Positions 43,467-63,819 of a stretch of 64,000 nucleotides of DNA are shown one piece after another. The notes under the pieces are model-generated. The model searched no databases. It was given only the letters and a program-made list of their open reading frames with translations, and was not told the DNA's origin. This DNA comes from Minisyncoccota bacterium (GTDB taxonomy: Bacteria; Patescibacteriota; Minisyncoccia; Minisyncoccales; JAQTVQ01). Positions within the stretch are counted from its first letter, which is position 1; each line of letters opens with the position of its first letter. The stretch spans positions 8,820 through 72,819 of the forward strand of contig JBBABZ010000003.1 of the NCBI GenBank assembly GCA_041657385.1, read 5' to 3'. The position numbers were made by a program, and so were the translations under genes.

Positions 43467-43602
43467 ACCCCGACTATTGCTCGTCAGCCCGGGTTTAGCC
43501 TTAAACCCAGTCTTCCTCGCAGACCGCGGCCCTGCTCGGGCAGGTCCGCTCGGATTGGGCCGCCAGCCAACGCATTTTAGCCGCAGGTGGGGGTAAAAAG
43601 GG
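43467..43602. repeat. ~133-bp inverted repeat (left copy) flanking the 17-kb cargo; partner at 60889..61021
   Basis: Reverse complement ~90% identical to 60889..61021. A diverged direct copy lies at ~62786..62930. Confidence 0.8.
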
Positions 43603-45215: not shown

Positions 45216-45218
45216 AAT

Positions 45219-46499: not shown

Positions 46500-46517
46500 T
46501 TTTAAAAAAGAGTAATT

Positions 46518-48410
46518 GTGTTTTTATCTAAATTTACTATCTTAAATAATAAAAGTTGTAAAACCATTAATCTTGCTCCGTCAAAAACTGAACCGGAAGT
46601 TTTGATTGGTATTAATGATTGTGGTAAATCAACGATACTCAGATCATTAGATATTTTTTTTGATGAGAAAAAAAGCCTCTATTTTCTTCGAGAAGATCAA
46701 CAAAAAAGTGATTTGTCTAATTCCCCGCTCACTGCGCAAGAATTCAACCATGCAATAAGTGATTTTGGATATGCACCATTTTACAATTATTCAGGAAATG
46801 TTATCGGAATCTTATGTGAATTCGAATTAGAAGAAGCTGATAAAACAGATACCGAATTTCAGGACAGTGCAAAAAATCTGCATTTGAAATGGGCTATCGG
46901 TGATTCCAACAAAATCGTCATTTTGCGTATATTTCATGATAACGCTGTCGCGGGTCCAAACCTAAATGGATATTACTTATTAAATAATGATTACAAAAAA
47001 GATGATAATTTTCTTGAGGCTTGGAATAAAACAAAAGAAGTATTAAAAAAAATTCGTAAAGATTTAGCTATAGCTGATGCGGATGTAACTAATGAAAATG
47101 GCAAAGGACCTTTTAAAAATATTGAAGAAATAAGGGCTATTTATAAAAAAGTAGAAGTTGATTTGGAGCTATCATGGTTTTTATATAAGGACTTCTCAAA
47201 AGATAAAACATTTTTTCCAAGTTTTAAATATCTTGATTGGAATTTTTCCTTGAAAGATTTAGAGGATTTGGCCACCGAAGCCATGAATGAGGTAACAAGT
47301 CCGTTATTAGGAGAAATAAAAAGTTTAGCCTCAACAAAGCAAGTTGAAGCAATTGTGGGAGTAAACAAGAAATTTGAAGAATTGATGGGCAATCTAAAAG
47401 ATGAATTGCCTACAAGCATAAAAAAAATTAGTTCCTCTGTATTTTTTAATGTAAACCAAAAAATTACTGATATAAAATTAACGAAGGAGAATGTTGATGG
47501 GGAGGTGCATATTGATAATCAAGGTGACGGAATAAAAAGACAAATTTGGTTCGCGTTATTAAAATGGCGCAGTAAGCTGCCCGTAAGCGAGATAAAAAGA
47601 AACAAATATATTTGGTGTTTTGACGAGCCGGAAACACATTTGTATCCATCAGCGCAAAGACAGCTTTTTAGCACCTTCCGTGATATGTGCGAAAAAGAGT
47701 TCCAAGTATTATTAAGCACTCACTCCACAGTGTTTATTGATAGAACAAGGATAAACAATATTAACAAAGTCGTTTTAAATAATGGCTATTCCGTAATTAA
47801 TAAAACGGACGATATAGATGATATTTTTGATTGTTTGGGTTTGAAAAATAGCGATTTTCTATTTTTTGATAAATTTCTTGCCGTTGAAGGTCCGACCGAA
47901 TATGAACTAATCCCAAAGCTGTATAAACTAAAATTTGGTAAAACTTTAATTGAAGATGGAATTCAGTTGATAAATTTAAAAGGTAAATCGCAGTGTGAAA
48001 ACCATAAACAAATTTTGGAAGATATTTTGTCAAAATTTAAAAAAGCTGATGACAAGATTTATTATTTATTTGATGCTGATACCAAAGTTACTAGAGGAAC
48101 GAATGTTTGTGTAGTTGGAACAAATGACATAGAGGATTCTATCCCTAACAATATTTGGATTAAATTTGTTAAAGATAATTGTGATATTGATTTGACAGAG
48201 CAAATCTTAGATGACGAGATAAGAGCAAAATTAGACCCTCAAAAGAAATTTTATAAATTACTTCATGATTATATTGCAAATAATGTAGTCAATGATAAAT
48301 ATTTACCATCAAAAGGCAGTGATTCTGGATCAATATTAGCAGGATGCTTTACCAATAAAGAAGAAATACCAACGAGTATTAATGATTTTTTTGATTGTAT
48401 CAATTTGTAA
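46518..48410 (+). CDS. OLD-family (overcoming lysogenization defect) ABC-type ATPase + TOPRIM nuclease
   Basis: Walker A GINDCGKSTILRSL, Walker B/D-loop IWCFDEPETHLYPSAQRQL, H-motif LLSTHS, then TOPRIM (LAVEGPTEYELIP glutamate, YYLFDADTK DxD). Confidence 0.75.
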   Translation: MFLSKFTILNNKSCKTINLAPSKTEPEVLIGINDCGKSTILRSLDIFFDEKKSLYFLREDQQKSDLSNSPLTAQEFNHAISDFGYAPFYNYSGNVIGILCEFELEEADKTDTEFQDSAKNLHLKWAIGDSNKIVILRIFHDNAVAGPNLNGYYLLNNDYKKDDNFLEAWNKTKEVLKKIRKDLAIADADVTNENGKGPFKNIEEIRAIYKKVEVDLELSWFLYKDFSKDKTFFPSFKYLDWNFSLKDLEDLATEAMNEVTSPLLGEIKSLASTKQVEAIVGVNKKFEELMGNLKDELPTSIKKISSSVFFNVNQKITDIKLTKENVDGEVHIDNQGDGIKRQIWFALLKWRSKLPVSEIKRNKYIWCFDEPETHLYPSAQRQLFSTFRDMCEKEFQVLLSTHSTVFIDRTRINNINKVVLNNGYSVINKTDDIDDIFDCLGLKNSDFLFFDKFLAVEGPTEYELIPKLYKLKFGKTLIEDGIQLINLKGKSQCENHKQILEDILSKFKKADDKIYYLFDADTKVTRGTNVCVVGTNDIEDSIPNNIWIKFVKDNCDIDLTEQILDDEIRAKLDPQKKFYKLLHDYIANNVVNDKYLPSKGSDSGSILAGCFTNKEEIPTSINDFFDCINL

Positions 48411-48411
48411 T

Positions 48412-49608
48412 ATGGATAAGAAGAACAAAACTAACTGGCAAATAAAAAAACTTGGCGAGGTTTGTGATTTTGAGGGCGGTTCGCAACCGCCTAAAGTTAA
48501 TTTTATTCACGAACCAAGAAAAGGTTATGTGCGCTTTTTACAAATAAGAGATTTTGGAAGCGATAAACACATTACATATATCCCAGACTCGAAGAAAAAT
48601 AGACACTGCACAGAGGATGATATTTTACTTGGTAGATACGGAGCTTCCGTTGGAAAAATATTGATCAATAAAAAGGGAGCATATAATGTAGCTGTAATGA
48701 AAACATTGCCCAAATACGATCTTTTAGATAAAAAGTATTTCTATTTTTATTTAATTTCAGATGAGTTTCAAAAGCGTTTAAGCAAGGTGGCGGCTAGGTC
48801 AGCACAAGCAGGATTTAGTAAAGATGATATTTATGACTTTCCAGTTGTAACGCCGCCCCTCCCTGAACAACGCCGTATTGTGAAAATTTTGGATGAGGTT
48901 TTCGAGAAGACGGCGAAGGCGAAAGAAAATGCGCAAAAAAATCTGCAAAATGCCAAAGAGCTTTTTGAATCGTATTTGCAGAGTGTTTTTGCTCCTCCTT
49001 CGCTAAAGTTAAGAGCGGACAAGGAACCATCGGGAACGAATTGGAAGGAAAAAAAATTGGGAGAAATCGCATCTTTTTCGCAGGGAATACAAGTTGGGTT
49101 AGAAAAACATTTGACGGAGCCAAAAAAAGATTATGTTAGATTTATCAGGATTGTCGATTACACTCAGGACACAGAAGATATCAGATATATTCCAAATCCT
49201 GGAGATAAATATTTTGTTAATGAGAATGATATCGTAATGGTCCGGTATGGCACACCTGGTTTAATCGGGAGAGGAAAAGCGGGTGTAATTGCCAATAATC
49301 TATTCAAGATAACAATAGATAAAAATTATTTGTTGAACGATTATTTATGTTTTTACCTATCTCAAAAAAATATACAAATTTATTTAAGTACCCGAGGTTC
49401 TGCTACTATGCCTGCATTAAATTTTGGGCAGCTTAAAACAGTAGTTATCAATTTTCCATCATTATCCGAGCAAAAAGCGATTGTTGCCAAACTTGATGCA
49501 CTTTCTACCGAAACTAAAAAATTGGAGGCGATTTATAAACAAAAATTAGCGGATTTAGATGAGCTGAAAAAGTCAGTTCTTAAACGTGCCTTTATTGGTG
49601 ATTTATAA
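48412..49608 (+). CDS. hsdS: type I restriction-modification system specificity subunit (HsdS)
   Basis: Two target-recognition domains separated by conserved coiled-coil regions, repeated at the C-terminus (LDEVFEKTAKAKENAQKNLQNAKELFESYLQ). ATG 48412 abuts the OLD gene stop. Confidence 0.85.
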   Translation: MDKKNKTNWQIKKLGEVCDFEGGSQPPKVNFIHEPRKGYVRFLQIRDFGSDKHITYIPDSKKNRHCTEDDILLGRYGASVGKILINKKGAYNVAVMKTLPKYDLLDKKYFYFYLISDEFQKRLSKVAARSAQAGFSKDDIYDFPVVTPPLPEQRRIVKILDEVFEKTAKAKENAQKNLQNAKELFESYLQSVFAPPSLKLRADKEPSGTNWKEKKLGEIASFSQGIQVGLEKHLTEPKKDYVRFIRIVDYTQDTEDIRYIPNPGDKYFVNENDIVMVRYGTPGLIGRGKAGVIANNLFKITIDKNYLLNDYLCFYLSQKNIQIYLSTRGSATMPALNFGQLKTVVINFPSLSEQKAIVAKLDALSTETKKLEAIYKQKLADLDELKKSVLKRAFIGDL

Positions 49609-49620
49609 TAAACTACATTT

Positions 49621-52011
49621 ATGAACGAATCAGAAACACGAGCCGAATATATTGACCCGAAACTTAAAGCGAGCGGATGGGGCGAAGTTGAGGGATCAAA
49701 AGTCCATCGCGAATTTCGTATTACCGAAGGTAAAATTCAAGCTGGCGGAATGCGGGGCAAGCCGGAAATTGCCGACTATATTTTGGTTTATAAAAACCGT
49801 AAAATTGGCGTGATCGAAGCCAAAGCCGAAAACTTGGAAGCCACTGAAGGTGTAGCGCAAGCCAAAGCGTATGCGCAAAAATTGCAGATTGATTATACTT
49901 ACGCCACCAACGGCAAAGAGATTTACGAAATATCTATGAAAACCGGGCGAGAAGGGATTATCGCCGATTTTCCAACTCCTGATGAATTGTGGAATAAGAC
50001 ATATTCTGACCAAAACGAATGGAAAGAAAAGTTTGCGAGCGTGCCAAACGAGGGCGAATACGGCAAGCGCTATTATCAAGAAATCGCCATCAATAATATT
50101 CTAAACGCTGTAGCGGAAGAAAAAAGCAGAATTCTTTTAACTATGGCAACCGGTACCGGAAAAACTGCTGTAGCTTTTCAGGTCGCCTGGAAACTTTTTC
50201 AAACTCGCTGGAATTTGAAACGCGATGGCGCCCGCCGACCGAGAATTTTATTTTTAGCTGACAGGAATATTTTAGCCGATCAAGCGTTCAACGCTTTTTC
50301 CGCTTTTGATAAAGATGCACTTGTCCGCATTAATCCGTTGGATATTCGCAAAAAGGGCGGAGTCCCGATGAGCGGCAGCGTTTATTTCACAATTTTTCAA
50401 ACTTTTATGAGCGGCCAGGGCGGCAGCCCGTATTTCGGCGATTATCCGGCCGACTTTTTTGATTTTATTATAATTGACGAGTGCCATCGCGGCGGAGCCA
50501 ACGATGAAAGCAATTGGCGGGGGATTTTGGAATATTTTTCACCGGCGGTCCAGCTTGGTCTGACTGCCACGCCAAAACGGGCAGATAATATTGATACTTA
50601 TAAGTATTTTGGCGAACCGGTTTATATTTATTCGCTTAAAGAGGGCGTAAATGATGGTTTTTTAACGCCTTTCAAGGTTAAACGGATCAAAACTACGCTT
50701 GATGATTATGTTTATACTTCCGACGATCAAATCATTGAAGGAGAAGTAGAAGAAGGGAAAATTTATGAAGAACCAGATTTCAATCGGATTATTGTTATTA
50801 AAGAACGCGAAGCCAAAAGAGTTCGCGTATTATTGGACGAAATAAATCAAAACGAAAAGACGATTATATTTTGCGCGACCCAAGATCATGCGTTGGCCGT
50901 TCGTGATTTGGTGAATCAAATGAAGAAAAGCAAAGACCCGAATTATTGCGTGCGCGTAACGGCAAATGATGGCGCCCGAGGCGATCAGTTTTTACGTGAA
51001 TTTCAAGATAACGAAAAAACGATCCCGACAATTCTTACAACATCGCAAAAACTTTCTACTGGCGTTGATGCTCGTAATATTAGAAATATTGTTTTAATGC
51101 GACCGGTAAATTCAATGATTGAGTTCAAACAGATCATTGGCCGCGGAACCAGGCTTTTTGATGGAAAGGAATACTTCACGATTTATGATTTTGTGGATGC
51201 CTATAAACATTTCTCCGATCCGGAATGGGATGGCGAACCGGTCGACGAAATATGCTCAAAGTGCGGGAAAGAACCTTGTATTTGTGAAAAGGAACCTCCT
51301 CAAATATGTTCAATATGCGGGAAAGAACCATGTGAATGCGAAAAACCGCCTAAGCTTTGCCCAATATGCGGCAAACTGCCATGCGAATGTAAAAATCAAC
51401 CAAAGAAAAAATTGAAAATAAAACTGCGTGATGGTAAGGAGCGCGAGATAAAGCATATGATCTCCACTTCTTTTTGGGGTGCCGATGGCAAGCCGATCTC
51501 TATTCAAGAGTTTATGGACAATATGTTTGGTACTATGCCGGAATTTTTCAAAAGCGAAGAAGAGCTGAGAAAGATTTGGTCGAATCCGACAACGCGGAAA
51601 GCGTTTTTAGAAAAAATTGCCGAAGCTGGTTATGGCAAAGACGAATTGGAAACGCTGCAAAAAATGATTGATGCCGAGCAAAGCGATTTGTTTGATGTTT
51701 TGTCATACATATCATTCTTAACTCAGCCAATTTCAAGAGTGCAGCGAGTAGAACAAGCAAAAGACAACATTTTTGAAGGCTTAGAAGAAAAACAAAAAGA
51801 ATTTTTAGATTTTGTTTTATCAAAATACGAACAAAAAGGCGTTGAGGAGCTTGATGAAGAAAAATTACCGATCTTACTAAATTTAAAATATCATTCGCCA
51901 GCTGATGCAATAAACATTCTCGGTGATGTAGAAAACATTCGATCAATTTTCTTCGCCTTTCAGAAAAATTTGTATGCCAAAACGAGCAAGGAGTACGCGC
52001 AGAAGAATTGA
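49621..52011 (+). CDS. hsdR: type I restriction enzyme R subunit (HsdR) with Cys-rich tandem-repeat insertion
   Basis: N-terminal PD-(D/E)xK domain (ADYILVY...VIEAKA) and SF2 helicase motifs (ATGTGKT, DECHR). Near the C-terminus, three ~36-39-nt tandem repeats encode C-x2-CGK-x-PC-x-CE (51243-51400). Confidence 0.9.
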   Translation: MNESETRAEYIDPKLKASGWGEVEGSKVHREFRITEGKIQAGGMRGKPEIADYILVYKNRKIGVIEAKAENLEATEGVAQAKAYAQKLQIDYTYATNGKEIYEISMKTGREGIIADFPTPDELWNKTYSDQNEWKEKFASVPNEGEYGKRYYQEIAINNILNAVAEEKSRILLTMATGTGKTAVAFQVAWKLFQTRWNLKRDGARRPRILFLADRNILADQAFNAFSAFDKDALVRINPLDIRKKGGVPMSGSVYFTIFQTFMSGQGGSPYFGDYPADFFDFIIIDECHRGGANDESNWRGILEYFSPAVQLGLTATPKRADNIDTYKYFGEPVYIYSLKEGVNDGFLTPFKVKRIKTTLDDYVYTSDDQIIEGEVEEGKIYEEPDFNRIIVIKEREAKRVRVLLDEINQNEKTIIFCATQDHALAVRDLVNQMKKSKDPNYCVRVTANDGARGDQFLREFQDNEKTIPTILTTSQKLSTGVDARNIRNIVLMRPVNSMIEFKQIIGRGTRLFDGKEYFTIYDFVDAYKHFSDPEWDGEPVDEICSKCGKEPCICEKEPPQICSICGKEPCECEKPPKLCPICGKLPCECKNQPKKKLKIKLRDGKEREIKHMISTSFWGADGKPISIQEFMDNMFGTMPEFFKSEEELRKIWSNPTTRKAFLEKIAEAGYGKDELETLQKMIDAEQSDLFDVLSYISFLTQPISRVQRVEQAKDNIFEGLEEKQKEFLDFVLSKYEQKGVEELDEEKLPILLNLKYHSPADAINILGDVENIRSIFFAFQKNLYAKTSKEYAQKN

Positions 52012-52128: not shown

Positions 52129-52965
52129 ATGGAATTAAGAGACAGGATGCAAGAATTTAATCAACGCTGGAATGTTGAAAATAATGAATCGTATGGTGAG
52201 AGTTTTGCGAAATTTAAGATTCGCATTCTTAATATCTTAAAAAATATAGATAACCAAGTTACGGAAGGCAGCGTAACTTTATTTTGCCAATTGTATGGCA
52301 TACCAGAAAGTTGGGGATCTTATTCAGGGAGACGCAGATTGAGTGCGAACATTATCAATAGGATTAATGGTGAGAACAATGAAGTGGAGTTTTACAGGTT
52401 GCTAGAGGTTATTTTTTCTTTAGATATCCGTAGCCTCGATGGATATGGCGGATGGGAAGAATATAATAAGCGAAGCATCTATAAGGAAGTATGCCAAGCC
52501 ATTGGATTTTCAGATGTGAACCTTGCCACAACCATGACAGAAAAAGGGGAAATAATTTTTTATCCTAAGGGAGAAGAATTGTTAGATAACGAGCTTGTCA
52601 ATTTTGTTTTAAGCTTTTTATCGGTGGAGAGTAACAAACATTTTGAAGAAGCCCTTGGTTTTTATGGCGCCAAAAAATGGGTTAAATGTGCCGAGAGCTT
52701 ACGCCGTTCCCTTGAACAATATTTGCGAAAAAAGTTCAATAATAATATCGGCCTCAAGACGAATATCGTTGAAATCGGGAAAAAGTTAAAGAACCAAAAT
52801 TCGCCAGCGCAGATTAGAAGTATTGTTTCTATAATCTTTGGCCATCTTGATCAGTTTTTTAACGATAATAGCAAACACAATGATGGCGAGTTGGAAGAAT
52901 CTGATGCTGAATTTTTGATTTACCAAACAGCATTACTTATGCGTTATATCGAGAAATATCTCTAA
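52129..52965 (+). CDS. hypothetical protein
   Basis: 278 aa, alpha-helical, no motif recognised. Confidence 0.5.
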   Translation: MELRDRMQEFNQRWNVENNESYGESFAKFKIRILNILKNIDNQVTEGSVTLFCQLYGIPESWGSYSGRRRLSANIINRINGENNEVEFYRLLEVIFSLDIRSLDGYGGWEEYNKRSIYKEVCQAIGFSDVNLATTMTEKGEIIFYPKGEELLDNELVNFVLSFLSVESNKHFEEALGFYGAKKWVKCAESLRRSLEQYLRKKFNNNIGLKTNIVEIGKKLKNQNSPAQIRSIVSIIFGHLDQFFNDNSKHNDGELEESDAEFLIYQTALLMRYIEKYL

Positions 52966-52987
52966 AATCTTAACAGGAACAAATTAC

Positions 52988-53485
52988 GTGAATTTTTTAG
53001 CCGAAGATCTATTAAAAATTAAAACATTGGATCACTCTAAAATTCAAGCGTGGATCAAGCGGTATTTTTATGATTGTGGCTACTATTCCCGAACGGAAAA
53101 GGAAGTTTGGCGGGATAGAAAAGGCCGGATCGATGTGTTCGCCCAAAAGGGGAGCTATACGGTCGGGATCGAAGTCGATCACAGCTCGATCCGGCTGAAC
53201 TCAATTGAAAAGTTGAACGCACTTAATCCGTCTTTGGCGGTTTTTGTTTTAAAGGGGAAAGTTTTCAATTGGGAAAAAACTTATTCTCGTTTCAAATTTT
53301 TAAAGGTGAAATCTTTGATAATCCATTTGCAGACGAAAAGGTACAAGTGGGTCTGTCCCCAAGAGAAAAATTCTTGTAAAATAGACGAAAGTGTGGATAT
53401 TTACAATAAAAAAATACTTTCTAAAATGTGCCAAAATACAGATTCAGAAAATTTGAAAAAAGCCAAACGCCCCTCAAATTCATAA
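52988..53485 (+). CDS. hypothetical protein, possible restriction-endonuclease-like fold
   Basis: 165 aa. GRIDVF...YTVGIEVD could be a D...E-x-D/K nuclease core. Weak. Confidence 0.3.
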   Translation: MNFLAEDLLKIKTLDHSKIQAWIKRYFYDCGYYSRTEKEVWRDRKGRIDVFAQKGSYTVGIEVDHSSIRLNSIEKLNALNPSLAVFVLKGKVFNWEKTYSRFKFLKVKSLIIHLQTKRYKWVCPQEKNSCKIDESVDIYNKKILSKMCQNTDSENLKKAKRPSNS

Positions 53486-54282
53486 TCGGGCCTAAAGATA
53501 TTTTAATACTCCAAGACCTTGCCGCCTATAAGTTTTTAGATTCAAAACATATATTAGCCTTGCATCCGGAAATAAAGGAAAGAAGCCTTCAATCAAGGCT
53601 TCATTTGCTTTTCCACGGAGGATTGGTGGAGCGGCCGCCAAGCCAATTCACATACTTCCAAAAGGCGGCCCATATCGTTTACAGCCTGACCAAGAAAGGA
53701 GCGGAGCTGGTTTCTCAAGATATGGGAGTTTCCGATCAAGTAAAACAGCCCAAAAATATGGGCGTGTCTTTTTTACAGCACTCGCTGATGATCTCCAATT
53801 TCAAAACAATTCTGGAATTGGCCTTAAAAGAAAACGGCCAGTCAAAACTTTCTTTTTGGAGCGAGCCGAAAACCATTGATGTGATCTATTCCGGCGGCGA
53901 AAGGCTGCCAATCGCACCGGACGCGTTTTTCACGATAGAGGATAAGGATTATTTGATGCATTTTTTCCTTGAAGTGGACCGCTCAACGATGGCGCTTGAG
54001 CGGATGGTAAAGAAATTCAAAGGATACTGGGATTGGCGCGCCGAAGGCGGACACAAGCGAAAGCTGAAGATTTCCAATTTCCGCGTGCTGACGGTGGCCT
54101 TAACCGAAGACCGCAAAGAGAATATAAGAAAGATCGCTAGAAAAGCGGATGACAATCAAACCGGCAGCGAAATGTTCTGGTTTGCCTGTGAAAAAGCGTA
54201 TAATTTAGAAAACACCGGAAAGATATTGGATCCCATTTGGAAAACTTCGAAAAATGAAAATTTACACCATATATTGGAATAA
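53428..54282 (+). CDS. replication-relaxation family protein (plasmid/ICE-associated)
   Basis: PIAPDAFFTIEDKDYLMHFFLEVDRSTM matches the Replic_Relax core. The true start is probably internal (N-terminal region overlaps the previous ORF). Confidence 0.55.
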   Translation: MPKYRFRKFEKSQTPLKFIIGPKDILILQDLAAYKFLDSKHILALHPEIKERSLQSRLHLLFHGGLVERPPSQFTYFQKAAHIVYSLTKKGAELVSQDMGVSDQVKQPKNMGVSFLQHSLMISNFKTILELALKENGQSKLSFWSEPKTIDVIYSGGERLPIAPDAFFTIEDKDYLMHFFLEVDRSTMALERMVKKFKGYWDWRAEGGHKRKLKISNFRVLTVALTEDRKENIRKIARKADDNQTGSEMFWFACEKAYNLENTGKILDPIWKTSKNENLHHILE

Positions 54283-54330
54283 AGGTCGGCCAGGTTTTAA
54301 ATGTAATATTTTAACGCAACAATAAAACTT

Positions 54331-54837
54331 ATGTTTGCAAGAATAAAACAGGAAGCGATCTTGGAGAGTTGGGGAACTTTGGTCGGATCTGTCAGCGGCC
54401 GGAGCGAGGAATTTTTTAGAAAGACGGGAGAAGCCATAAATAGCTATAAAGTGCCATTTCTTGTAATGGACTATAAGGAAGTTGCTCCCAGTTTTGAAAA
54501 GGGGCTTTTCGGCAAAAAGCGTCCGGCCATCATCGTAACAAACAGAAAAATGCCTGAATATAAGATGTTTATCATGTGCAGGGATTATGGAACGCAACTT
54601 TCGATTTCTTGGTATCTTCTTTCCGCCAGCCCGTTGATGTACGCGATAACGACATTTGCGCAGACCTTAGCGCAAACAAAGAAGCCCATGGATGTATTTC
54701 AACTTGAAGAGCTTTCGTGCTGGACGGCAACCGTCCATCACGCGACAACCGCCGCCTCAAAAGAGATCGCCGAATCGGTTGGCTTCGATTTCTCCAAGGT
54801 TGATCAAAAATCAAGAGGTTTTTTAAATATTTCTTAA
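54331..54837 (+). CDS. hypothetical protein upstream of TraD/VirD4-like ATPase
   Basis: 168 aa. Its stop abuts the ATPase start. Confidence 0.5.
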   Translation: MFARIKQEAILESWGTLVGSVSGRSEEFFRKTGEAINSYKVPFLVMDYKEVAPSFEKGLFGKKRPAIIVTNRKMPEYKMFIMCRDYGTQLSISWYLLSASPLMYAITTFAQTLAQTKKPMDVFQLEELSCWTATVHHATTAASKEIAESVGFDFSKVDQKSRGFLNIS

Positions 54838-54838
54838 A

Positions 54839-56383
54839 ATGATTCCAGGCTGGTTGCGCCAATTCTTGGAAAAAGCCAAAGCGGTTTTGAAAAAGATTTG
54901 GGCCATCTTGAATAAGGATATTTTCGTCAAACCGCGTCCGTCAAAACCGGATGCGGCGAATGAAGTGCCTCCAGAAAGGAGGCTGGATTTGGGCTACGCT
55001 TGGGGCGTTGACGAGAAAACGAATATGGAAGGCTTTACCCAGAGAAAAGCGATCTATACGGATTATCGAAAGACGCATTTTTATATAATTGGCGCAACCG
55101 GCACCGGCAAGACCAAGTTTTTGGAGTCGCTCATTATCCAGGACCTCGTGAATGGCGAAGGCTTTGCGGTTATAGATCCGCACGGCGATCTGACCGAGAA
55201 TATCAAGGGTTGGCTGTATCACAAAACGCAAAAAGATTTTCAAAAGGATATTATTTTGATCGAGCCGACTAATCTTGAAAAGACCGTTAGTTTCAACCCC
55301 TTGGAGCCGATACCGGGCATCTCAAGCTCGGAGATCGCCAGCGAGCTGGTGGAAGTGTTTAGAAAGATTTGGATCGATTCCTGGGGCGAGCGGATGGCCG
55401 ATATAATGCGCAACTCTTTGATCGCGCTGGTGGAAAACGGCCTGACCTTGGCCGAATTGCCGCCGTTTTTGACAAATACCGCTTTCCGTAGAAAAGTGAT
55501 GCGTAATGTGAAGAATCCAACCTGCTTGGAACGGCTCGAATATTTCAATTCTTTGCCGCCTTCCACTTGGCGGGAATGGATCGAATCGACCTTGAATAAA
55601 GTAGATGCTTTTCTTTCGGATGCGAGGATCCGTGATATATTCTCTTCGCCTAAAAGTTCTTTCAACCTTCGGGAAATTATGGACAGCGGGAAAATCCTGC
55701 TGGTCAATCTAAGCCGGGGAAGACTGAAAGGCGGAGCCAATCTTTTGGGAGCGCTTCTGGTCAGCAAAATCCAGATGGCCGCTTTTTCCCGTGCCGATAT
55801 GCCGCAAACCAGCCGAAAGCAGTTTTATCTTTACATCGACGAGTTTCAAAATTTTGCCACGGAAAGTTTTGTCGAGATGTTAAGCGAGGCGCGGAAATAC
55901 AAACTTTCCCTGATAATGGCGCACCAGAATTTAAGCCAGCTCCCAAGAACTTTGAAGGATTCTATCCTTGCCAATTGCGGCATTCAAGCCTGTTTTCGCG
56001 TTAATCGTGAAGATGCCCAATTGCTGGCCAAGGAGCTGTTAAGCCCGCTTTACCAGCACCAGCCCGGCTGGGAGCTGAACATCCAGCGCTTGCAGGAACT
56101 GCCGCCGCGGACCTGCTTTGTGGCCAACCGGATGGAAGGCGGGATAATTTATATCTCCACGCCGGACGTGCCTAATCCTTGGGAGCTTATCTGGGGCGAA
56201 GAAGACGGCGAATGGAAGACTTATGACGAGGAAACTTTTCGCAGATTTATGGATGTAATGGGTTACGGTGCCTCTTATTTGCGGGATAGGGCCGAAGTAG
56301 AGGAGGAATATCTGCAAAGGTATACCGAGCTCGTTAAAAGCAAGGAAGGAGAGAATTTCAGGGAAAGAAAAGGCCAAATTTGA
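54839..56383 (+). CDS. TraD/TraG/VirD4-family coupling-protein-like P-loop ATPase (island copy)
   Basis: Walker A GATGTGKT, IDPHGD and Walker B FYLYIDEFQNFAT, the same signature as 9175..11037. Confidence 0.7.
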   Translation: MIPGWLRQFLEKAKAVLKKIWAILNKDIFVKPRPSKPDAANEVPPERRLDLGYAWGVDEKTNMEGFTQRKAIYTDYRKTHFYIIGATGTGKTKFLESLIIQDLVNGEGFAVIDPHGDLTENIKGWLYHKTQKDFQKDIILIEPTNLEKTVSFNPLEPIPGISSSEIASELVEVFRKIWIDSWGERMADIMRNSLIALVENGLTLAELPPFLTNTAFRRKVMRNVKNPTCLERLEYFNSLPPSTWREWIESTLNKVDAFLSDARIRDIFSSPKSSFNLREIMDSGKILLVNLSRGRLKGGANLLGALLVSKIQMAAFSRADMPQTSRKQFYLYIDEFQNFATESFVEMLSEARKYKLSLIMAHQNLSQLPRTLKDSILANCGIQACFRVNREDAQLLAKELLSPLYQHQPGWELNIQRLQELPPRTCFVANRMEGGIIYISTPDVPNPWELIWGEEDGEWKTYDEETFRRFMDVMGYGASYLRDRAEVEEEYLQRYTELVKSKEGENFRERKGQI

Positions 56384-56430
56384 AGAAATCCTTTACTTCT
56401 TTACTGTTTGTATAGTAAGAATAAGGCAAT

Positions 56431-57180
56431 ATGGATTTTATAGCTTCAAACTTAATAACTCCGGCCATAATTATTTCTGCGGCCGCCTATCTTACAAGAT
56501 TTTACGGTAAGGTTATCTCAGATCGAAAACCATTTTCTGACGATCGAGATTGGGAGATCGAATTTTCCGGAATTCTTTTTTTTATAACCATGCTCCTCTC
56601 TGTTGTGCCTGGGATTTTTAGCGCTTTAAAAATCGGTTGGCTTTTCCCTTTTGAGTGCCCTATAATTATGATTGTCTTTTTTTCGACGCTTTGGTTATCG
56701 ATTAGTATAGATATTCTTATTGATAAAAACACATATAAAAAGATATACGATATCAAAATTCCATTTATCCAAAATTTATTTAAATCAGCTAAAGATGACA
56801 GGACAAGATTAAAAGAACCCAACGCAAAATTTTGGACCATTAACGAATATGTGATACTTTGGTTTTTCCCATTCTTATATACATATATTTTGACCATCGA
56901 ATACCAGTCTCAAAATATAGAACGGTTATTCTCCGCAGGGCTCCTCGTTTTTTTAAATTCTATTTTAATAGCACTATTCTACTCACTAAGGAGAAATCGG
57001 CCACGGAAAGCTGATATAATTTTTATAAATAGAGAAAGGTCTCTTTTTGATGTGCTGTTATTAAAGGTAAATAATGATAATGTTCGCATTAAGCAGAAAG
57101 AGAAGGTTTCTATTATTAATAAAGACCAAATTGAGAGGATAGAATTACTTCCGATAAAAGATAATGCTAAAAAATATTAG
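56431..57180 (+). CDS. hypothetical polytopic membrane protein
   Basis: 249 aa, at least 5 hydrophobic helices. Confidence 0.5.
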   Translation: MDFIASNLITPAIIISAAAYLTRFYGKVISDRKPFSDDRDWEIEFSGILFFITMLLSVVPGIFSALKIGWLFPFECPIIMIVFFSTLWLSISIDILIDKNTYKKIYDIKIPFIQNLFKSAKDDRTRLKEPNAKFWTINEYVILWFFPFLYTYILTIEYQSQNIERLFSAGLLVFLNSILIALFYSLRRNRPRKADIIFINRERSLFDVLLLKVNNDNVRIKQKEKVSIINKDQIERIELLPIKDNAKKY

Positions 57181-57201
57181 AATTAATTAAAAAAACGATA
57201 A

Positions 57202-57984
57202 ATGCCAGATAAGATTATCATTTACCCGGAATTTACTATAGAAGAAATGGAGAGCGCTTTGTCTCCTTTTATGTCGAGTAGAACCCATAGCAGAAATATA
57301 GCTTACAGTTTGCAATTTTTGAAATATTGCGAAGAATTGATAAAACAAAAAATTGAGGTTAAATTTGCGATAGATTCTATCTTCTCAAAAGCGATGACCG
57401 TTATAGCATCTTCTGTCATAGAATGTTTGATATTTGATTCTTTAAAGAAAAATGATTGTTGCTTAGAGAAATGGAAAGACTTCCAACCTCCAACAGAGTT
57501 ACCGATTTATAAAGATGATCCAAACAGAAGGGTGAGGATAGTTTATCAAGAAAAAATAGAAGAGCCTCTAGACAAGTTTGTTCCTTTCGGAATGGCTATA
57601 AACTTAGCTATTGAAAATCAAATTATTGATAGTGGGATTAGATCATCGCTCGACAAAGTAAAAAGCGCAAGAGATTTGATACATATCAGAGGCGGCGAGG
57701 ATTTGGATATGAAAAAAATTAATTTAGATTTTTATTTTAAAATTACGCGGCCTACCTTAATAAAGATAATGGAGAAATTAAAACTAAAAAAAGCTATAGA
57801 ACTATTTGAATTGAGCAAAGCATCAGAATCAAAACCAAAAGAGATTGTTAAAAAACCATATTATAAGGGAGCTTCTATGGTTTGGTCTGTATCTAATAAG
57901 AAATGGTATTTAGTTAAAAAAGAAGGGGGGTTGGTTGATTTTCTTGGGGAGGAGAAAGATATTGAATGGCGAATTGTAAAATAA
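57202..57984 (+). CDS. hypothetical protein
   Basis: 260 aa, no motif recognised. Confidence 0.5.
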   Translation: MPDKIIIYPEFTIEEMESALSPFMSSRTHSRNIAYSLQFLKYCEELIKQKIEVKFAIDSIFSKAMTVIASSVIECLIFDSLKKNDCCLEKWKDFQPPTELPIYKDDPNRRVRIVYQEKIEEPLDKFVPFGMAINLAIENQIIDSGIRSSLDKVKSARDLIHIRGGEDLDMKKINLDFYFKITRPTLIKIMEKLKLKKAIELFELSKASESKPKEIVKKPYYKGASMVWSVSNKKWYLVKKEGGLVDFLGEEKDIEWRIVK

Positions 57985-58003
57985 ATATAAGATCAAAAAT
58001 AAA

Positions 58004-58816
58004 ATGCAAATTGATTCACCCGATATCAACGCGTTAATAAAGGATATTTTGCCGATCGAGGCTTCTTTCACCGGAGATCCCGGCCGTCCGGAGTCGGAAC
58101 AGGCTGTGGCGCAAAGCATAGAACGGTGGAGATTAAGCTATTTAAAAGAGCTGGAGGCGAACAATTCCCTTGATGATATCAAAAAATTCAAAGTTTTTAT
58201 CACCAGCCTATTATTAAGGGCCAACAGAGGCGAGGTCGGCGGGAGATTGTATAGGGCTCTTAACGATAGAATAAACGATTTCAAAGATCTGGATAGGAAA
58301 ACCGTCGCAGCCGTTTTAAAAGATGCTGGTTACCGTTTCCAACTTCAAGGCATAGAGACGGTGCTGGATGCCAAAAAATTATTGCTTGATAGGTATCAAG
58401 GCAGCTGGGATGGATATTTTAAAGAAGCAAAAGAAAATTACAGAAATAATTTTCCAGATGACGATTTTTTAAAGATAAAGGGGGTGGGCTTCAAGGTAAG
58501 AGATCTGGCCTCGAGCTGTTTTTTAAAAGAATATTCCGCTAATGATTTTCATGTAGTGGATGTTCTAGTAAGGACAGGTTTGATTTTATACGGATACGGC
58601 AATTTTAATTTTGGAACTAATCCTAATAATAACGAAAACTATTTATTTTTAAGGAATTTGATAATCAATATCTCCGAGCAAACACCTTATTCCCCAGGAG
58701 AAATTGATAGAATTTTTTGGCATTTCGGTCGGGCAGTTTGCAAAAGTAAGCCGTTGTGTGAAAAATGCTTCATTAAAAATATATGTTTGACCTATAGAAA
58801 TATAAAAGAGATTTGA
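58004..58816 (+). CDS. HhH-GPD superfamily DNA glycosylase with C-terminal 4-Cys (FeS-type) cluster, endonuclease III/MutY-like
   Basis: HhH-GPD signature LKIKGVGFKVRDLASSCFL...FHVVDVLVRTG (Lys + Asp). C-terminal C-x5-C-x2-C-x5-C (CKSKPLCEKCFIKNIC). Confidence 0.65.
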   Translation: MQIDSPDINALIKDILPIEASFTGDPGRPESEQAVAQSIERWRLSYLKELEANNSLDDIKKFKVFITSLLLRANRGEVGGRLYRALNDRINDFKDLDRKTVAAVLKDAGYRFQLQGIETVLDAKKLLLDRYQGSWDGYFKEAKENYRNNFPDDDFLKIKGVGFKVRDLASSCFLKEYSANDFHVVDVLVRTGLILYGYGNFNFGTNPNNNENYLFLRNLIINISEQTPYSPGEIDRIFWHFGRAVCKSKPLCEKCFIKNICLTYRNIKEI

Positions 58817-58842
58817 TAGGAAACTAAAAATTACAATATTTT

Positions 58843-59364
58843 ATGGCAAAACTTTTTACGGATGGAAATAAACACAACGAACTTGCTGATGAAGTTATCA
58901 ATGCATCTACGAAAGCTCTTTCATATTTTTTTGAAGAGTGCCAGGAAGCGATTAGAACGAAAGATATAAGCGCAGTTGAGCTGTATCTTTTTTATCTTTG
59001 CCAGACGTGGTTTTTGTTAAAAAGTCATATTTTAGAGATGGGCGCAGACCAAAACGACCAAATGGTATTATTCGGAACAATAATTCATAAATTTTGCAAC
59101 AGAGCTGCCTCCTTAACATTTTCTAAGAACTTAGCGGCGGAAAATAATAATTTAGATTTTTGGGGTCAGGAATTAAAGAAAAATTTGATTTTTTATCAAC
59201 AAATAGCAAATGAGGGGGGAGTGGCTGAATTAATGCAGGTTGCTTATAATAAGATTATTAAGTCTGATGATCAAGATTTTCAATCGGCAACAGGCAAAGC
59301 GTTTTTAGCATCCGCATACATTGCCTCTGTTCATATCGAAGAAAAATTAGAAGAACTAATGTAG
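58843..59364 (+). CDS. hypothetical protein
   Basis: 173 aa, helical. Confidence 0.45.
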   Translation: MAKLFTDGNKHNELADEVINASTKALSYFFEECQEAIRTKDISAVELYLFYLCQTWFLLKSHILEMGADQNDQMVLFGTIIHKFCNRAASLTFSKNLAAENNNLDFWGQELKKNLIFYQQIANEGGVAELMQVAYNKIIKSDDQDFQSATGKAFLASAYIASVHIEEKLEELM

Positions 59365-59390
59365 AGAAGCATTTTTTATCTATAAAAATT

Positions 59391-59654
59391 ATGGCTAAAA
59401 AGACTCAAAAACTTTCTAATCTTAGTCCATTCGCATTCCAGAGGGAGCTTTATGCATCTGATGGTATAAACATTATAAGGACAATTCCGACTAAGGGCGG
59501 AAAGGCTCCCTTCATCGCTTATCTTAAAATTGGTTATGGGAAAGAGATTGAAGTCGATTATTCGATTGACGATGTCGCCCAAGTTTTATCTTCCGGATAT
59601 GAAATTACGAAAGAAGATTATGACAAATCTGACGGCGAAGTTAGGAATAGATAG
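59391..59654 (+). CDS. hypothetical protein
   Basis: 87 aa. Confidence 0.4.
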   Translation: MAKKTQKLSNLSPFAFQRELYASDGINIIRTIPTKGGKAPFIAYLKIGYGKEIEVDYSIDDVAQVLSSGYEITKEDYDKSDGEVRNR

Positions 59655-59700
59655 TTTCCCGCGGTATGATAACCTTTATTTTTTAAAAGAAAGTTAAGCT

Positions 59701-60237
59701 ATGGATTTTCCTAAGGAGCTACGACCAGCAAATAAAATGGAACTTCGGCTTTCGGATGGCATAGTAGTAGCCTTGCCAGTGGCTTATCCAAAGTTTTTAG
59801 CTTGGAAGGGACCATCTGTTGTTTTTGATTATGGAAACAAGCCCATAATTAATTACAAAGAGGAAGCGTGTTTTGCTGAGCTTGCAGTTCTTCGCCTTTT
59901 ACTTGATCAGGGATGGGACGGAGTGTGGGTTGAAAGTTACGGGGGCACTCATTATTTGCGAAGTATGCCTCAAGCATGGAATTTGCAATCGGAACATATA
60001 TTGATCCCGCAAGACAAAGAATGTTTACTGCAAAAGATATGGAAAGTAGCCAAGACGACGGCTTGTTTCGATGTTTTTGCATGGCACGATGACCAGTTAG
60101 TATTTTTTGAGGCTAAAAGGACAGGAAAAGATAAGCTTACTTCTCCTCAGATAAGATTTATAGAAGGAGCCTTGGCGTGTGGGATATCGCCGGAATCGCT
60201 CATTATTGTTGAGTGGGAAGATATTTCTTCGAGTTAA
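59701..60237 (+). CDS. VRR-NUC / PD-(D/E)xK-type nuclease domain protein
   Basis: FDVFAWHDDQLVFFEAKRTGKDKLTSPQIRFIEGALACG matches the VRR-NUC core (D ... E-A-K ... Q). Confidence 0.55.
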   Translation: MDFPKELRPANKMELRLSDGIVVALPVAYPKFLAWKGPSVVFDYGNKPIINYKEEACFAELAVLRLLLDQGWDGVWVESYGGTHYLRSMPQAWNLQSEHILIPQDKECLLQKIWKVAKTTACFDVFAWHDDQLVFFEAKRTGKDKLTSPQIRFIEGALACGISPESLIIVEWEDISSS

Positions 60238-60239
60238 AT

Positions 60240-60780
60240 TTCTCCTTATAGGCTATTCGGGCGGTCGTCGTTGGTTTTAAGTAATCAGCCGCCGCCGGTA
60301 GGCCTTGCTCTCTTTGACGATAGGAAAAGTGTGTTTTAAAGGTCCCGCCAAAGCGGGATTTTTAAAAGCCGGACGGCGGCGGCTGATTAGTATCCTGAGC
60401 TGGAAATTTTCGGAAAGGCTTTTGCGATAGAGTAAAAGACTTTCGGGAAAAGCGGACCCGCAAAAAACTATAGGAACCGGCCGCCGGAAAATCAAATGTC
60501 TCCGCGTCAGGTGTCATTTGATAGCGAAGCGGTTTATGGCGGCGGTTCCGTTAAATGGTTTTTGGCGGGGGAGCGGTTTCCGGCGGCCCCTGCCTGCTTT
60601 CTTGGAGTCTTGTCACTGGCCTTGGTCAGTTCATCGCGTGATTATGGCTCTATCCATCACATACCTCTGTCCAGGCGCTGTTTTGGCTTGGAGTTACCTC
60701 TTACTTAGGCATTGCTTCCAAAACAGCGCCGTTGACTACGGCAGAACCGTCCGGCGTTCGGATTGGGCCGCTTTCGATAG
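60240..60780. other. GC-rich noncoding region with multiple long perfect stem-loops (candidate structured RNA or oriT/ori/att region)
   Basis: 17-bp stem TAATCAGCCGCCGCCGG ... CCGGCGGCGGCTGATTA; GGAACCGGCCGCC ... GGCGGCGGTTCC enclosing ATCAAATG...CATTTGAT; 13-bp stem GGCGCTGTTTTGG ... CCAAAACAGCGCC. No long ORF. Confidence 0.5.
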
Positions 60781-60782
60781 CT

Positions 60783-60872
60783 AAAAAGTCTGCGTTCTTC
60801 ATTTCTCTGCGTGTTACCTTTACTCTGCGTTCTTAGAACGCAGAGTCAACGCAGAGAGAACGCAGACTTTTT
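60783..60872. repeat. nested palindrome (AAAAAGTCTGCGTTC ... GAACGCAGACTTTTT with inner CTCTGCGTTC-TTA-GAACGCAGAG)
   Basis: Perfect 15-bp outer and 10-bp inner inverted repeats centred at 60833-60835. CTCTGCG/CGCAGAG occurs four times. Confidence 0.8.
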
Positions 60873-60888
60873 AGCGAGCCAACGCATA

Positions 60889-61021
60889 CCTTTTTACCCC
60901 CACCTGCGGCTAAAATGCGTTGGCTACGGCCCAATCCGAGCGGACCTGCCCGAGCAGGGCCGCGGTCTGCGAGGAGGACTGGGTTTTAGCAAAAATACAG
61001 GCTGACGAGCAATAGTCGGGG
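60889..61021. repeat. ~133-bp inverted repeat (right copy), partner of 43467..43602; overlaps 3' extension of recombinase 2
   Basis: ~90% identical to the reverse complement of 43467..43602. Confidence 0.8.
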
Positions 61022-62529
61022 ATGGCAAGACTAAGAATTATTGATAAAATAGGTCCTAGCTTCGTTGTAGATATACTCATTTCAGAAAACGCCAATTTTT
61101 TGGCCGACAATGCCCACGGTTTTTGAAGCGAAATAGACGGTTTTTGGCCGACAATGCGGAAGTCCGAGCCGATTTTTTTGAGGAAGTTTTGTTTTTCCTC
61201 CAAATTTTCACTTTCCGCGATGGAATTGGCTTGAAATGCCTCTAAAATCCATTCTTTGAAGAGTCCGAGCCGAACATTTCCCTTCCGTCCAAAATTTTCC
61301 AGCTCCTCGTTAATTTCAACCTTGCGGTTGAGAAGTTTTTGTTTTTTGGCGGCGTATTCTTCGCGGCTGATCGTTTGGTCTATGTAAGCGTCCAAAAGTC
61401 GGTTTAATTTCGCGTTCACTGTTTTTAGTTCCGTTTTTAAATTTTGGGCGGAATCGTTGGCGGTAGTGGAAAATTTCTTGCGATCATTTTCCCATCGTTT
61501 GAGAAAGTTATTTTTCCATTCCGCGTTTAAAGAAACTTTTTGAAAAAGTTTATTCAGCTGTTCCGATAGATTTTTTTCGCCGATATATTTTTGGTGGCAA
61601 ACGCGGTCTTTCTTGGTACAGCGGTAATAGGTGTATGATTTGCCGGAAGGTTTGACCCTTGTTTCGGCGGTGATCTGGCGGCCGCACTCGCCGCATTTGA
61701 ACACGCCGCGGAAAGCGTAATGTTTCAAACTCTTTGCCTGCGGTTTGCCTCGTTCTCGCATAACGCGTTGAACTTTTTCAAAAAGTTGTTTGGAAATGAT
61801 CGGCTCGTGATTGCCTTGATATATTTCGCCTTTGAATTTAAACAAGCCGTAATAAAACGGATTTTTTAGCATTGTTTGGATTTTGGAAACGGCGATGGCT
61901 TTTCCTTTTCTTTGTCCGGCTAAGCCAATGGAAAAAGAAAGTTTTTGCAAATCTTCCAAAGTATATTTTCCCGTGGCGTAAGCTTCAAAAACTTTCTTGA
62001 CCGCTTCGGCGCGCTGTGTGTCTTTGACAATGGTGTGATGGCGCAGTTCGTTTAGATAGCCGATAGGGGCGTAGGCCGGATAATCGCCGTTTCGCAGTTT
62101 TTGGCGCAATCCGCGCTTGATGTTCTCGCTCAAATTGTCGATGTAATACTTTGACTGGCCGAAAGCGATATTTAACATAAACTTTCCCTGCGGGGTTGCG
62201 TCAAACCAAAAGGTGGGGAATTTTAAGCCGCCAATCTTGCCAGTGTCCACGAGATAAATAATCTTTCCGCCGTCAACGCTATTACGCGCCAGCCTGTCCG
62301 GGTGCCAGCTTAAAATTCCAAAAGACCCGCCCGCTTCTATTTTGGCGATCATTTGGTTGAATATGGGACGGCCTGGAACCTTGGCGGTTTTCGATTCAAT
62401 AAACTCATCGGCGATTTCCAATCCTTCTTTTAAAGCAAATTCTTTTAGCTCCGTTATCTGGGCTTCAATGCTTAGGACTTGGCGTTCTTCTTCGTCCGTG
62501 GATTTTCGAGCGTATAAAAAATATTTCAT
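60910..62529 (-). CDS. large serine recombinase (second copy) with C-terminal read-through extension into the inverted-repeat element
   Basis: MKYFLYARKSTDEEERQVLSIEAQ start chosen at 62529 (the ORF-track N-terminal extension is probably spurious). ~80% identical to recombinase 1. Its C-terminus runs ~55 aa past the point where recombinase 1 stops. Confidence 0.85.
   Translation of the reverse strand: MKYFLYARKSTDEEERQVLSIEAQITELKEFALKEGLEIADEFIESKTAKVPGRPIFNQMIAKIEAGGSFGILSWHPDRLARNSVDGGKIIYLVDTGKIGGLKFPTFWFDATPQGKFMLNIAFGQSKYYIDNLSENIKRGLRQKLRNGDYPAYAPIGYLNELRHHTIVKDTQRAEAVKKVFEAYATGKYTLEDLQKLSFSIGLAGQRKGKAIAVSKIQTMLKNPFYYGLFKFKGEIYQGNHEPIISKQLFEKVQRVMRERGKPQAKSLKHYAFRGVFKCGECGRQITAETRVKPSGKSYTYYRCTKKDRVCHQKYIGEKNLSEQLNKLFQKVSLNAEWKNNFLKRWENDRKKFSTTANDSAQNLKTELKTVNAKLNRLLDAYIDQTISREEYAAKKQKLLNRKVEINEELENFGRKGNVRLGLFKEWILEAFQANSIAESENLEEKQNFLKKIGSDFRIVGQKPSISLQKPWALSAKKLAFSEMSISTTKLGPILSIILSLAIPDYCSSACIFAKTQSSSQTAALLGQVRSDWAVANAF
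61075..61165. repeat. inverted repeat arm (~91 bp, 1 mismatch) inside recombinase-2 3' coding region; partner at 62612..62703
   Basis: ctcatttcagaaaacgccaattttttggccgacaatgcccacggtttttgaagcg... is the reverse complement of 62612..62703. Contains an internal direct repeat tttttggccgacaatgc. Confidence 0.85.
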
Positions 62530-62611
62530 ATTCCTTTTAAGGATAAAAATAATTTGAATTTGTGAAAATTTGGAGGAAAAAAATCGGCTTTCGTTTTCGA
62601 TTAACATTTTC

Positions 62612-63810: not shown

Positions 63811-63819
63811 CTTTTTATT

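Follow-up and report, generated by a model that had tools for sequence, protein, structure and literature searches.

The question raised by this locus is whether eleven consecutive genes of a Minisyncoccota bacterium, g01 to g11, act together as one system. They lie at positions 52129–60237 of a 64,000-nt stretch of contig JBBABZ010000003.1 (GenBank assembly GCA_041657385.1, contig positions 8,820–72,819), which was analyzed as a whole and is called the window hereafter. From the sequence alone, it had been proposed that a DNA glycosylase (g08), a VRR-NUC nuclease (g11), a coupling-type ATPase (g05) and a membrane protein (g06) form a new defense system; the alternative offered was that the genes are cargo and maintenance genes of a mobilizable element. 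The described run of eleven co-directional genes with short gaps was borne out: all open reading frames (ORFs) are present at the expected positions on the + strand, the gaps measure 1–48 nt, and the sole overlap (58 nt) is that of g02 with g03. The same genes were found at 99–100% identity in two independent metagenome assemblies (one JGI contig and one ENA contig), and an identical g04 is present in NCBI in a metagenome-assembled genome (MAG) labeled ‘Candidatus Paceibacterota bacterium’. The window is thus DNA of Patescibacteria (candidate phyla radiation), with which the near-total bias of its genes toward the + strand agrees. We conclude that the eleven genes are the backbone of an element together with its cargo, and not one defense system. 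The whole is probably an integrative mobilizable element of Candidatus Paceibacterota bacterium, which encodes a relaxase-like nuclease (g03) and a coupling ATPase of its own but relies on a pore already present in the cell.

Gene neighborhoods carry the evidence for this division. About 180 loci were fetched, including 80 metagenome loci anchored on g03 at 36–82% identity. In these 80 loci, g03, g04 and g05 adjoin wherever the contig is long enough, and g02 is located directly upstream or fused. Across ~100 related loci, the recurrent unit is g02-g03-g04-g05, to which g06 is added at times (it follows the ATPase gene in five loci: L018, L103, L117, L120 and L121), and the other genes of the cluster are not conserved with this unit. 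Among the fetched loci, g01, g07, g09 and g10 were found in no related locus outside the window element; g11 recurs only in L024 and L175, where it adjoins the ATPase gene; and g08 and g11 occur together nowhere outside the window element.

These data bear directly on the idea of a single anti-phage system, in which the glycosylase would attack modified phage DNA and the VRR-NUC protein would cut the DNA so damaged, with the ATPase and the membrane protein sensing or coupling. Such a system would suit the defense-rich surroundings (type I restriction-modification (R-M) genes and an OLD nuclease gene upstream, a Tsp45I gene downstream), the match of g01 to a PADLOC defense candidate, the matches of g05 to the mad8, DndH and HerA profiles, and the frequent location of g08 homologs in defense or R-M neighborhoods. 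It is nevertheless largely refuted by the neighborhood data, as the glycosylase gene occurs without the other cluster genes in three contexts, its pairing with g11 is unique to the window element, and four further genes are absent from all related loci. Moreover, PADLOC 2.0 detected no complete multi-gene defense system among the scanned proteins (g01–g09 and g11, which were also scanned with PHROGs and NCBIfam; g10 was compared with Pfam only), the matches being a single-gene candidate for g01 and ATPase-domain matches for g05. Conserved co-occurrence of the glycosylase with its neighbors had been set beforehand as the test of the one-system idea, and because there is none, the idea fails that test. 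We regard it as very improbable.

The alternative of cargo and maintenance genes of a mobilizable element is supported by the constant g02–g05 core, by elements bounded by terminal inverted repeats (TIRs), by serine recombinases and by variable R-M or defense cargo. In the window, the cluster forms the right-hand half of an integrative element of ~19.3 kb (window ~41735–61075) beside tRNA-Gly (Table 1). The right end is constant across the element family and comprises g02–g05, at times g06, a folded non-coding element, a palindrome and the TIR, whereas the left part is variable and mostly consists of R-M genes (type III Mod/Res in L013, L015, L105, L113 and L121, type I in the window). Genes g01 and g07–g11 are accessory cargo that varies between elements. 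The TIRs contain a hairpin (AGCCAACGCAT...ATGCGTTGGCT) and enclose cargo and core, and the TIR block is inverted at both ends of elements of 7.7–19 kb (L017, L107/108, L120, L123 and L126). A GC-rich non-coding stretch of 0.65 kb separates the eleven genes from TIR-R; the palindrome at 60770–60885 is conserved in L013, L015, L123 and L126 and, judged by its sequence, is a plausible candidate for a protein-binding region, an origin of transfer (oriT) or an attachment (att) region. The hallmark of large-serine-recombinase elements, a gene with Resolvase, Recombinase and Zn-ribbon domains at the element end beside a tRNA, is also present. A recombinase gene follows the right repeat in L013 and L113 as in the window, and in L108 a chromosomal P-type ATPase gene is located ~1.3 kb past the right repeat.

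Contigs of related elements often end exactly at the TIRs. In one locus (L160:7992-10857), a SIR2 and HerA(DUF87) pair was observed as cargo beside a distant version of the core.

Table 1 Features of the integrative element and its surroundings in window coordinates (ncRNA, non-coding RNA; ssDNA, single-stranded DNA; wHTH, winged helix-turn-helix).
Feature	Position	Strand	Description
tRNA-Gly(CCC)	41667..41739	+	island left junction; ARAGORN, Rfam tRNA
Large serine recombinase A, 486 aa	41730..43190	-	Pfam Resolvase+Recombinase+Zn_ribbon_recom
TIR-L	43468..43601	.	134 nt, inverted copy of 60889-61021, 92-100% complementary
Type I R-M operon	43764..52011	+	cargo; HsdM, DUF2130 protein, OLD-family AAA_15+TOPRIM nuclease, HsdS, HsdR (Pfam)
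g01	52129..52965	+	PDC-S32-like candidate defense protein, PADLOC 5.4e-17; cargo
g02	52988..53485	+	small core protein, PD-(D/E)xK-like D49...E62-V-D64-H motif (alignment)
g03	53428..54282	+	wHTH + Replic_Relax (MOBC-class, PD-(D/E)xK) relaxase-like nuclease; core gene
g04	54331..54837	+	core protein, invariant C-terminal tail SVGFDFSKVDQKSRGFLNIS; always immediately upstream of ATPase
g05	54839..56383	+	soluble VirD4/TraD-like coupling-protein ATPase; Walker A GATGTGKT, Walker B YIDEFQNF; core gene
g06	56431..57180	+	polytopic membrane protein, several hydrophobic segments (hydropathy)
g07	57202..57984	+	cargo; no family matches
g08	58004..58816	+	divergent HhH-GPD DNA glycosylase, Lys/Asp, C-X5-C-X2-C-X5-C cluster; floating cargo
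g09	58843..59364	+	small cargo protein; weak Cas4 matches only, E ~1e-3
g10	59391..59654	+	small cargo protein
g11	59701..60237	+	VRR-NUC family nuclease with N-terminal extension; accessory gene
Structured non-coding element, ~300 nt	60283..60600	+	companion of core; ncRNA or folded ssDNA origin
Imperfect palindrome	60770..60885	.	five CTGCGT/ACGCAG motifs, between folded element and TIR-R
TIR-R	60889..61021	.	right terminal inverted repeat
Large serine recombinase B	60910..62607	-	Pfam; 86% identical to A (BLASTP), 19.3 kb apart

The domain assignments of the sequence-only reading (Replic_Relax, TraD/VirD4-like ATPase, polytopic membrane protein, HhH-GPD glycosylase with a four-cysteine cluster, and VRR-NUC) were upheld. 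Its count of six unknown proteins stood for g04, g07, g09 and g10, which have no assignment, and has to be corrected for g01, which matches PDC-S32, and for g02, which has a PD-(D/E)xK-like motif. The match of g03 to PF13814 (Replic_Relax) reached 80 bits (cut-off 25.3, E 3e-22) over 183 of 191 profile positions, and an HxlR-like wHTH domain occupies the N-terminus (residues 26–95, Pfam). Residues H118, P164-D165, E182, D184 and R185 were invariant in six sequences with identities down to 38%, and PHROG matches of g03 include ‘replication initiation by nicking’ (1.3e-12) and ‘replication initiation protein’. In typing based on CONJscan, PF13814 stands for the MobC class of relaxases (PMC5357655), and the fold of this family is that of a PD-(D/E)XK nuclease (PMC3424549). 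For its small partner g02, profile searches against PDB and Pfam gave no significant family or PDB match, and the single-sequence AlphaFold2 (AF2) model had a predicted local distance difference test (pLDDT) score of 36. A single g02-g03 fusion ORF of 404–420 aa exists in ~13 other contigs (L130–L145), whereas the two genes are in different frames in the window; an hhalign comparison of g02 with g03 detected the fusion overlap alone and no nuclease homology.

The ATPase g05 scored above the curated Pfam cut-offs for T4SS-DNA_transf (51.2 bits), TrwB_AAD_bind (39 bits) and TraG-D_C (38 bits), its GxxGxGKT and hhhhDE motifs are invariant in the family, and g03 is located two genes upstream of it in nearly all related loci. 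The family is very large in the candidate phyla radiation (CPR), with >5,700 matches. It includes ~40%-identical paralogs of ~590 aa (L025–L096, e.g. L091:8548-11700) that are situated among housekeeping genes (secDF, a sigma factor gene, mnmA, alaS, nrdDG/ftsA), paired with a ~440-aa (441-aa) membrane protein and without g03 and g04. Hence, we consider the window g05 a member of a mobile-element subfamily. Some of the paralogs in housekeeping contexts carry a C-terminal Schlafen AlbA_2 domain.

The ATPase domain also invites other readings of the core. One is an R-M-associated defense accessory, consisting of a nuclease and a DNA-translocating ATPase like DndFGH, MADS or HerA-nuclease pairs. 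It would account for the PADLOC matches of g05, which are domain-level and cover the ATPase core only (mad8, 6e-22; DndH, 2e-9; HerA, 1e-6), for the many loci in which the core comes immediately after type I or type III R-M genes, and for the nearby SIR2-HerA genes in L160. Yet the R-M type varies or is missing, whereas the core is constant and keeps its place by the element end, the TIR and the folded element. In addition, mad1-7 and DndF/G were not detected by PADLOC, and the family of g03 is one of relaxation and replication, not of known defense nucleases. Compared with MADS (mad8), DndH and HerA, the P-loop ATPase domain is held in common and their partner proteins are absent here, and we consider this role improbable. 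A link to MADS was rejected, as the mad8 match is limited to the ATPase domain and the MADS preprint offers no details on domains.

Another reading takes the element for a viral or satellite genome, with g05 as its packaging ATPase of the FtsK/HerA/A32 type. The weak Pox_A32 match of g05 (1.2e-5, Pfam), its PHROG matches to a phage family of unknown function (4e-47) and to ‘terminase large subunit’ (7e-14), and distant homologs in Bacillus phages are consistent with this. However, capsid, portal and tail genes are present in none of the elements, and IMG/VR contains one distant ATPase match only (29% identity). A motif scan of IMG/VR for the folded element gave 22 pattern matches, none of which nhmmer confirmed, so that this element was not detected there either. 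A viral nature thus appears extremely improbable.

The third constant protein, g04, was found in 68 loci; its AF2 model had a pLDDT of 80 and gave no informative fold match. The g04-g05 pair also occurs at 48–50% identity, with an ATPase of 680–813 aa, in L020, L021 and L022, which come from MAGs labeled deltaproteobacterium, Smithella and Actinomycetota. These three loci have other upstream genes, and serine recombinases are present in L022 only; the pair in non-CPR MAGs reflects either real inter-phylum spread or binning contamination. The best plasmid homolog of g05 (35% identity) is encoded on Sulfitobacter plasmid NZ_CP081110 (97127-101181; L098), three genes away from the gene of a large serine recombinase with 30% identity to those of the window. 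Therefore, the association of ATPase and recombinase is not confined to CPR.

Known mobilization modules provide the closest parallels for the core. The MobC/MobB pair of CloDF13 is a module of a MOBC relaxase and its own coupling protein. With MOBC modules (CloDF13; Rel_PF13814/MobC of streptococcal integrative mobilizable elements), the window element has in common a PD-(D/E)XK ‘replication-relaxation’ nuclease adjoining a VirD4/TraD-family ATPase, and no mating-pore genes. In contrast to these modules, its ATPase has no membrane anchor, and g02, g04 and the 300-nt folded element are additional conserved parts; unlike CloDF13, to which no sequence similarity is detectable, it is integrative and not a plasmid. 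On the plasmids Embleya NZ_CP108778 and Bacillus NZ_CP086062, an ATPase resembling type IV coupling proteins (T4CPs) adjoins a ‘replication-relaxation family protein’ inside gene clusters for a type IV secretion system (T4SS). g05 is 29–30% identical to these T4CPs, and g03 is 22% identical to the Bacillus protein over 240 aa. The Embleya and Bacillus loci have PrgI, VirB4-like and NlpC/P60 mating-pore genes, whereas the CPR elements have none.

Taken together, these comparisons are consistent with the following mechanism of an integrative mobilizable element. A large serine recombinase would excise and integrate the element. g03, aided by g02, would bind and nick an origin near the right end, where 60770–60885 and 60877–60926 are candidate nicking sites by their sequence. 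g05 would then deliver the DNA to a type IV secretion apparatus of the host cell, and its docking at the membrane may be mediated by the conserved tail of g04, by g06 or by both. The folded element could act as an RNA with a regulatory or scaffolding function, or else as a single-strand origin at which synthesis of the complementary strand is primed. The glycosylase, the VRR-NUC protein, the PDC-S32-like protein and the type I R-M/OLD genes would be independent cargo, with likely roles in defense, anti-defense or DNA repair to the benefit of host or element.

Several observations weigh against mobilization by this route. Mating-pore genes were found neither in the element nor in its distant relatives. 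What the relatives do carry is an S49 peptidase and a second T4CP-like ATPase, which in one case is fused with an AlbA_2 domain. g05 (514 aa) has no hydrophobic segment according to hydropathy analysis, so that the typical N-terminal membrane anchor of coupling proteins is missing, and it shares its ATPase domain with the defense proteins mad8, DndH and HerA. The core very often adjoins R-M genes. As g03 reached only 13.7 bits on the NCBIfam MobC subfamily NF041423 (cut-off 200), it represents a distant branch outside the characterized MobC subfamily, and sequence comparison detected no similarity of either g03 or g05 to CloDF13. Neither recombinase gene is enclosed by the TIR pair, which leaves the exact element ends uncertain, and the right chromosomal flank is situated past the window end. 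Finally, a survey of Patescibacteria argues that their T4SS mostly do not serve conjugation (PMC12102498).

This survey (Microb Genom 2025) was the only account found in the literature searched for a CPR island of such type. Its available sections report that type IV secretion genes occur almost everywhere in Patescibacteria and relaxases almost nowhere, with chromosomal MPF-FATA-like T4SS genes being widespread (2,474 virB4 genes in the dataset) and probably not for conjugation (PMC12102498). They list 58 MOBC relaxases, the commonest class, and 39 relaxase genes close to t4cp, which were interpreted as acquired mobile elements (PMC12102498). Phylum and gene pair are the same as in our case, and the kind of element is thus already known, noted there at the level of counts; TIRs, serine recombinases, g02/g04, the folded element and R-M cargo are not mentioned in these sections (PMC12102498). 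The anatomy of the element, with two extra partners, long TIRs, self-bracketed recombinase genes and a strongly covarying 300-nt element, is undescribed in the literature searched. DNA exchange among the ultra-small, host-dependent CPR/Patescibacteria is largely obscure. The family described here recurs in at least 100 metagenomic contigs and commonly ferries R-M systems, and it supplies concrete, testable candidates for DNA mobilization in this phylum as well as a new motif of a structured RNA or single-strand origin.

The folded element at 60283–60600 was detected by nhmmer in 27 loci, 19 close ones on the gene strand and 8 distant ones on the opposite strand, and always near the g03–g05 core (for example L017:11432-11735, L120:14845-15151, L158:9784-10089(-) and L019:1880-2184(-)). 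Of 21 loci that extend 2.5 kb or more past the ATPase gene, 15 contain it, and it retained 80–83% nucleotide identity in loci whose neighboring proteins are 53–73% identical. RNAalifold predicted 50 pairs from 20 sequences, in which 95.5% of the cells were paired compared to 44–64% with slid partners. Compensatory double changes occurred in 21 pairs compared to 5–9 in the slid controls, and the observed covariation was reached by no shuffle. Since G.U cells exceed A.C cells (95:14), the + strand of the window is taken as the folded strand, with the limit that the structure was predicted on this strand. The element has at least nine helices, highly conserved unpaired stretches and a hairpin resembling a bidirectional terminator. 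Rfam yielded no match at the gathering threshold, and at E≤1 only a terminator-like partial match of 47 nt to RsmY.

The structure is either an ncRNA or a single-strand DNA origin of the sso/ssi type in folded form; each of the two would suit an element with a nicking enzyme. Rolling-circle plasmids have single-strand origins (ssoA/ssoU) and conjugative plasmids have ssi/Frpo elements; these are strand-specific, non-coding and extensively folded stretches of 150–330 nt, and their carriers pass through a single-stranded stage. We know of no sequence relationship between them and the folded element, whose helices and conserved unpaired stretches are equally typical of functional RNA. It is conceivable, although rather unlikely in our view, that the folded element represents a hitherto unrecognized kind of ncRNA, encoded by mobile elements and working with g02–g05, e.g. 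as a scaffold or specificity factor when DNA is processed and exported, and that the TIR family is the missing vehicle for conjugation-like transfer in CPR, whose T4SS genes have so far been without relaxases.

The resemblance to single-strand origins leads to the main rival of the mobilization reading, namely that g02–g05 and the folded element are a replication or maintenance module in which g03 starts replication of the excised circle by nicking, the folded element provides the single-strand origin, and the ATPase pumps DNA during segregation or resolution. A strand-specific folded non-coding element of ~300 nt, the PHROG matches of g03 to replication initiation proteins and the lack of mating-pore genes would all be expected of such a module, and the annotation of the Replic_Relax family refers to replication of plasmids in addition to relaxation (PMC3424549). 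Among protein families, however, g05 matches coupling proteins (VirD4/TraD/TraG) best, the pairing of g03 with a T4CP recurs within plasmid conjugation clusters of Gram-positive bacteria, and no replicative helicase or primase is encoded in the element. A purely replicative role of the core is unlikely on this evidence; as one nickase can serve both replication and mobilization, the two are not mutually exclusive.

We read the surroundings of tRNA-Gly as tandem integrative elements, the first of which (E1) spans ~41735–61075. The ORF of recombinase A ends one codon into the 3' end of tRNA-Gly, and in recombinase B the conserved part ends at ~61076 while the last ~54 codons run into TIR-R. Both gene bodies are bracketed by inverted arms (A: 94 nt, 41735-41828/43275-43368; B: 61076-61167/62610-62701). 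A second, tandem element probably begins with recombinase B, within 61076–64000. To the right of B, a diverged copy of left-end sequences (62784-62960) is followed by a gene for a Tsp45I-family restriction enzyme (63022-63810; Pfam 1e-123), whose methylase gene would be located past the window end.

The arms of each recombinase gene are inverted ~92-nt copies of the ~31 codons at its end. Only past the upstream + strand arm (43369-43416 and 62702-62749) does the sequence code for a conserved tail, (D/C)LYEKVRTFFL, and a full-length recombinase ORF bearing the LYEKVR tail was found in none of the fetched loci. L013 shows the same arrangement including the tail, and L113 the same arrangement without the tail motif.

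With the claim of a new defense system removed, the glycosylase g08 is a free-floating island gene whose substrate is of interest by itself. Its NCBIfam matches were N-glycosylase/DNA lyase (1.5e-6) and mutY (4.8e-5). Because all scores are under the curated thresholds (Ogg-HhH 19.2 vs 27 bits, EndIII_4Fe-2S 14.9 vs 20.5 bits, NCBIfam 27.8 vs 183 bits), we call the family divergent. A profile of 23 members matched MIG, archaeal Ogg2, EndoIII and MutY in PDB (3.5e-4 to 3e-3), and with MIG (PDB 1kea), EndoIII, MutY and Ogg2 the protein shares the HhH lysine two residues past GVG, the catalytic aspartate 17 residues further on and a C-terminal four-cysteine loop. In the 23 sequences, the motif IKGVGFK164...ND181FH is invariant or nearly so, and C246, C252, C255 and C261 are invariant. 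With 47 clusters, one of them named Parcubacteria, this is a small family; it has an N-terminal extension of ~60 aa and is apparently restricted to CPR.

Homologs of g08 with 59–74% identity were found in three unrelated contexts, with the other ten cluster genes absent within 10 kb. In the first, a prophage-like element that carries a serine recombinase interrupts a Mg-chelatase/comM gene; the second is a group of toxin-antitoxin genes upstream of rpsL-rpsG-fusA, and the third a DISARM/BREX-like island. Overall, the glycosylase gene was seen in five neighborhoods that are unrelated to each other. Only very close relatives (83–95% identity) keep a nearby Replic_Relax gene, and the intervening genes differ. 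Frequently, the homologs are situated near methyltransferases or R-M systems, and MIG is plasmid-borne beside an R-M methylase. Stand-alone defense and MIG-like, R-M-linked mismatch repair are possible roles of g08, and nothing in the data links it functionally to g05 or g11.

An exhaustive search for relatives of the accessory nuclease g11 retrieved 707 proteins. The window protein has no direct Pfam family match, but VRR_NUC (PF08774) was matched by 23 of 64 aligned family members (best 8.2e-8). In this alignment, the D...ExK...Q signature is well preserved, with D124 invariant and E137, K139 and Q150 at least 90% conserved, and the best PDB alignments were to the VRR-NUC domain of FAN1 (E 0.3). 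Within the type I R-M operon upstream, two additional genes separate hsdM from hsdS: one (45219-46499) encodes the DUF2130 protein, which has a zinc ribbon at its N-terminus, and the other (46518-48410) the OLD-family AAA_15+TOPRIM nuclease. Farther upstream, a bacterial RNase P RNA of class A was identified at 36920-37416 (103.5 bits, Rfam threshold 100); it has large insertions, as it measures 497 nt for a model of 367 positions.

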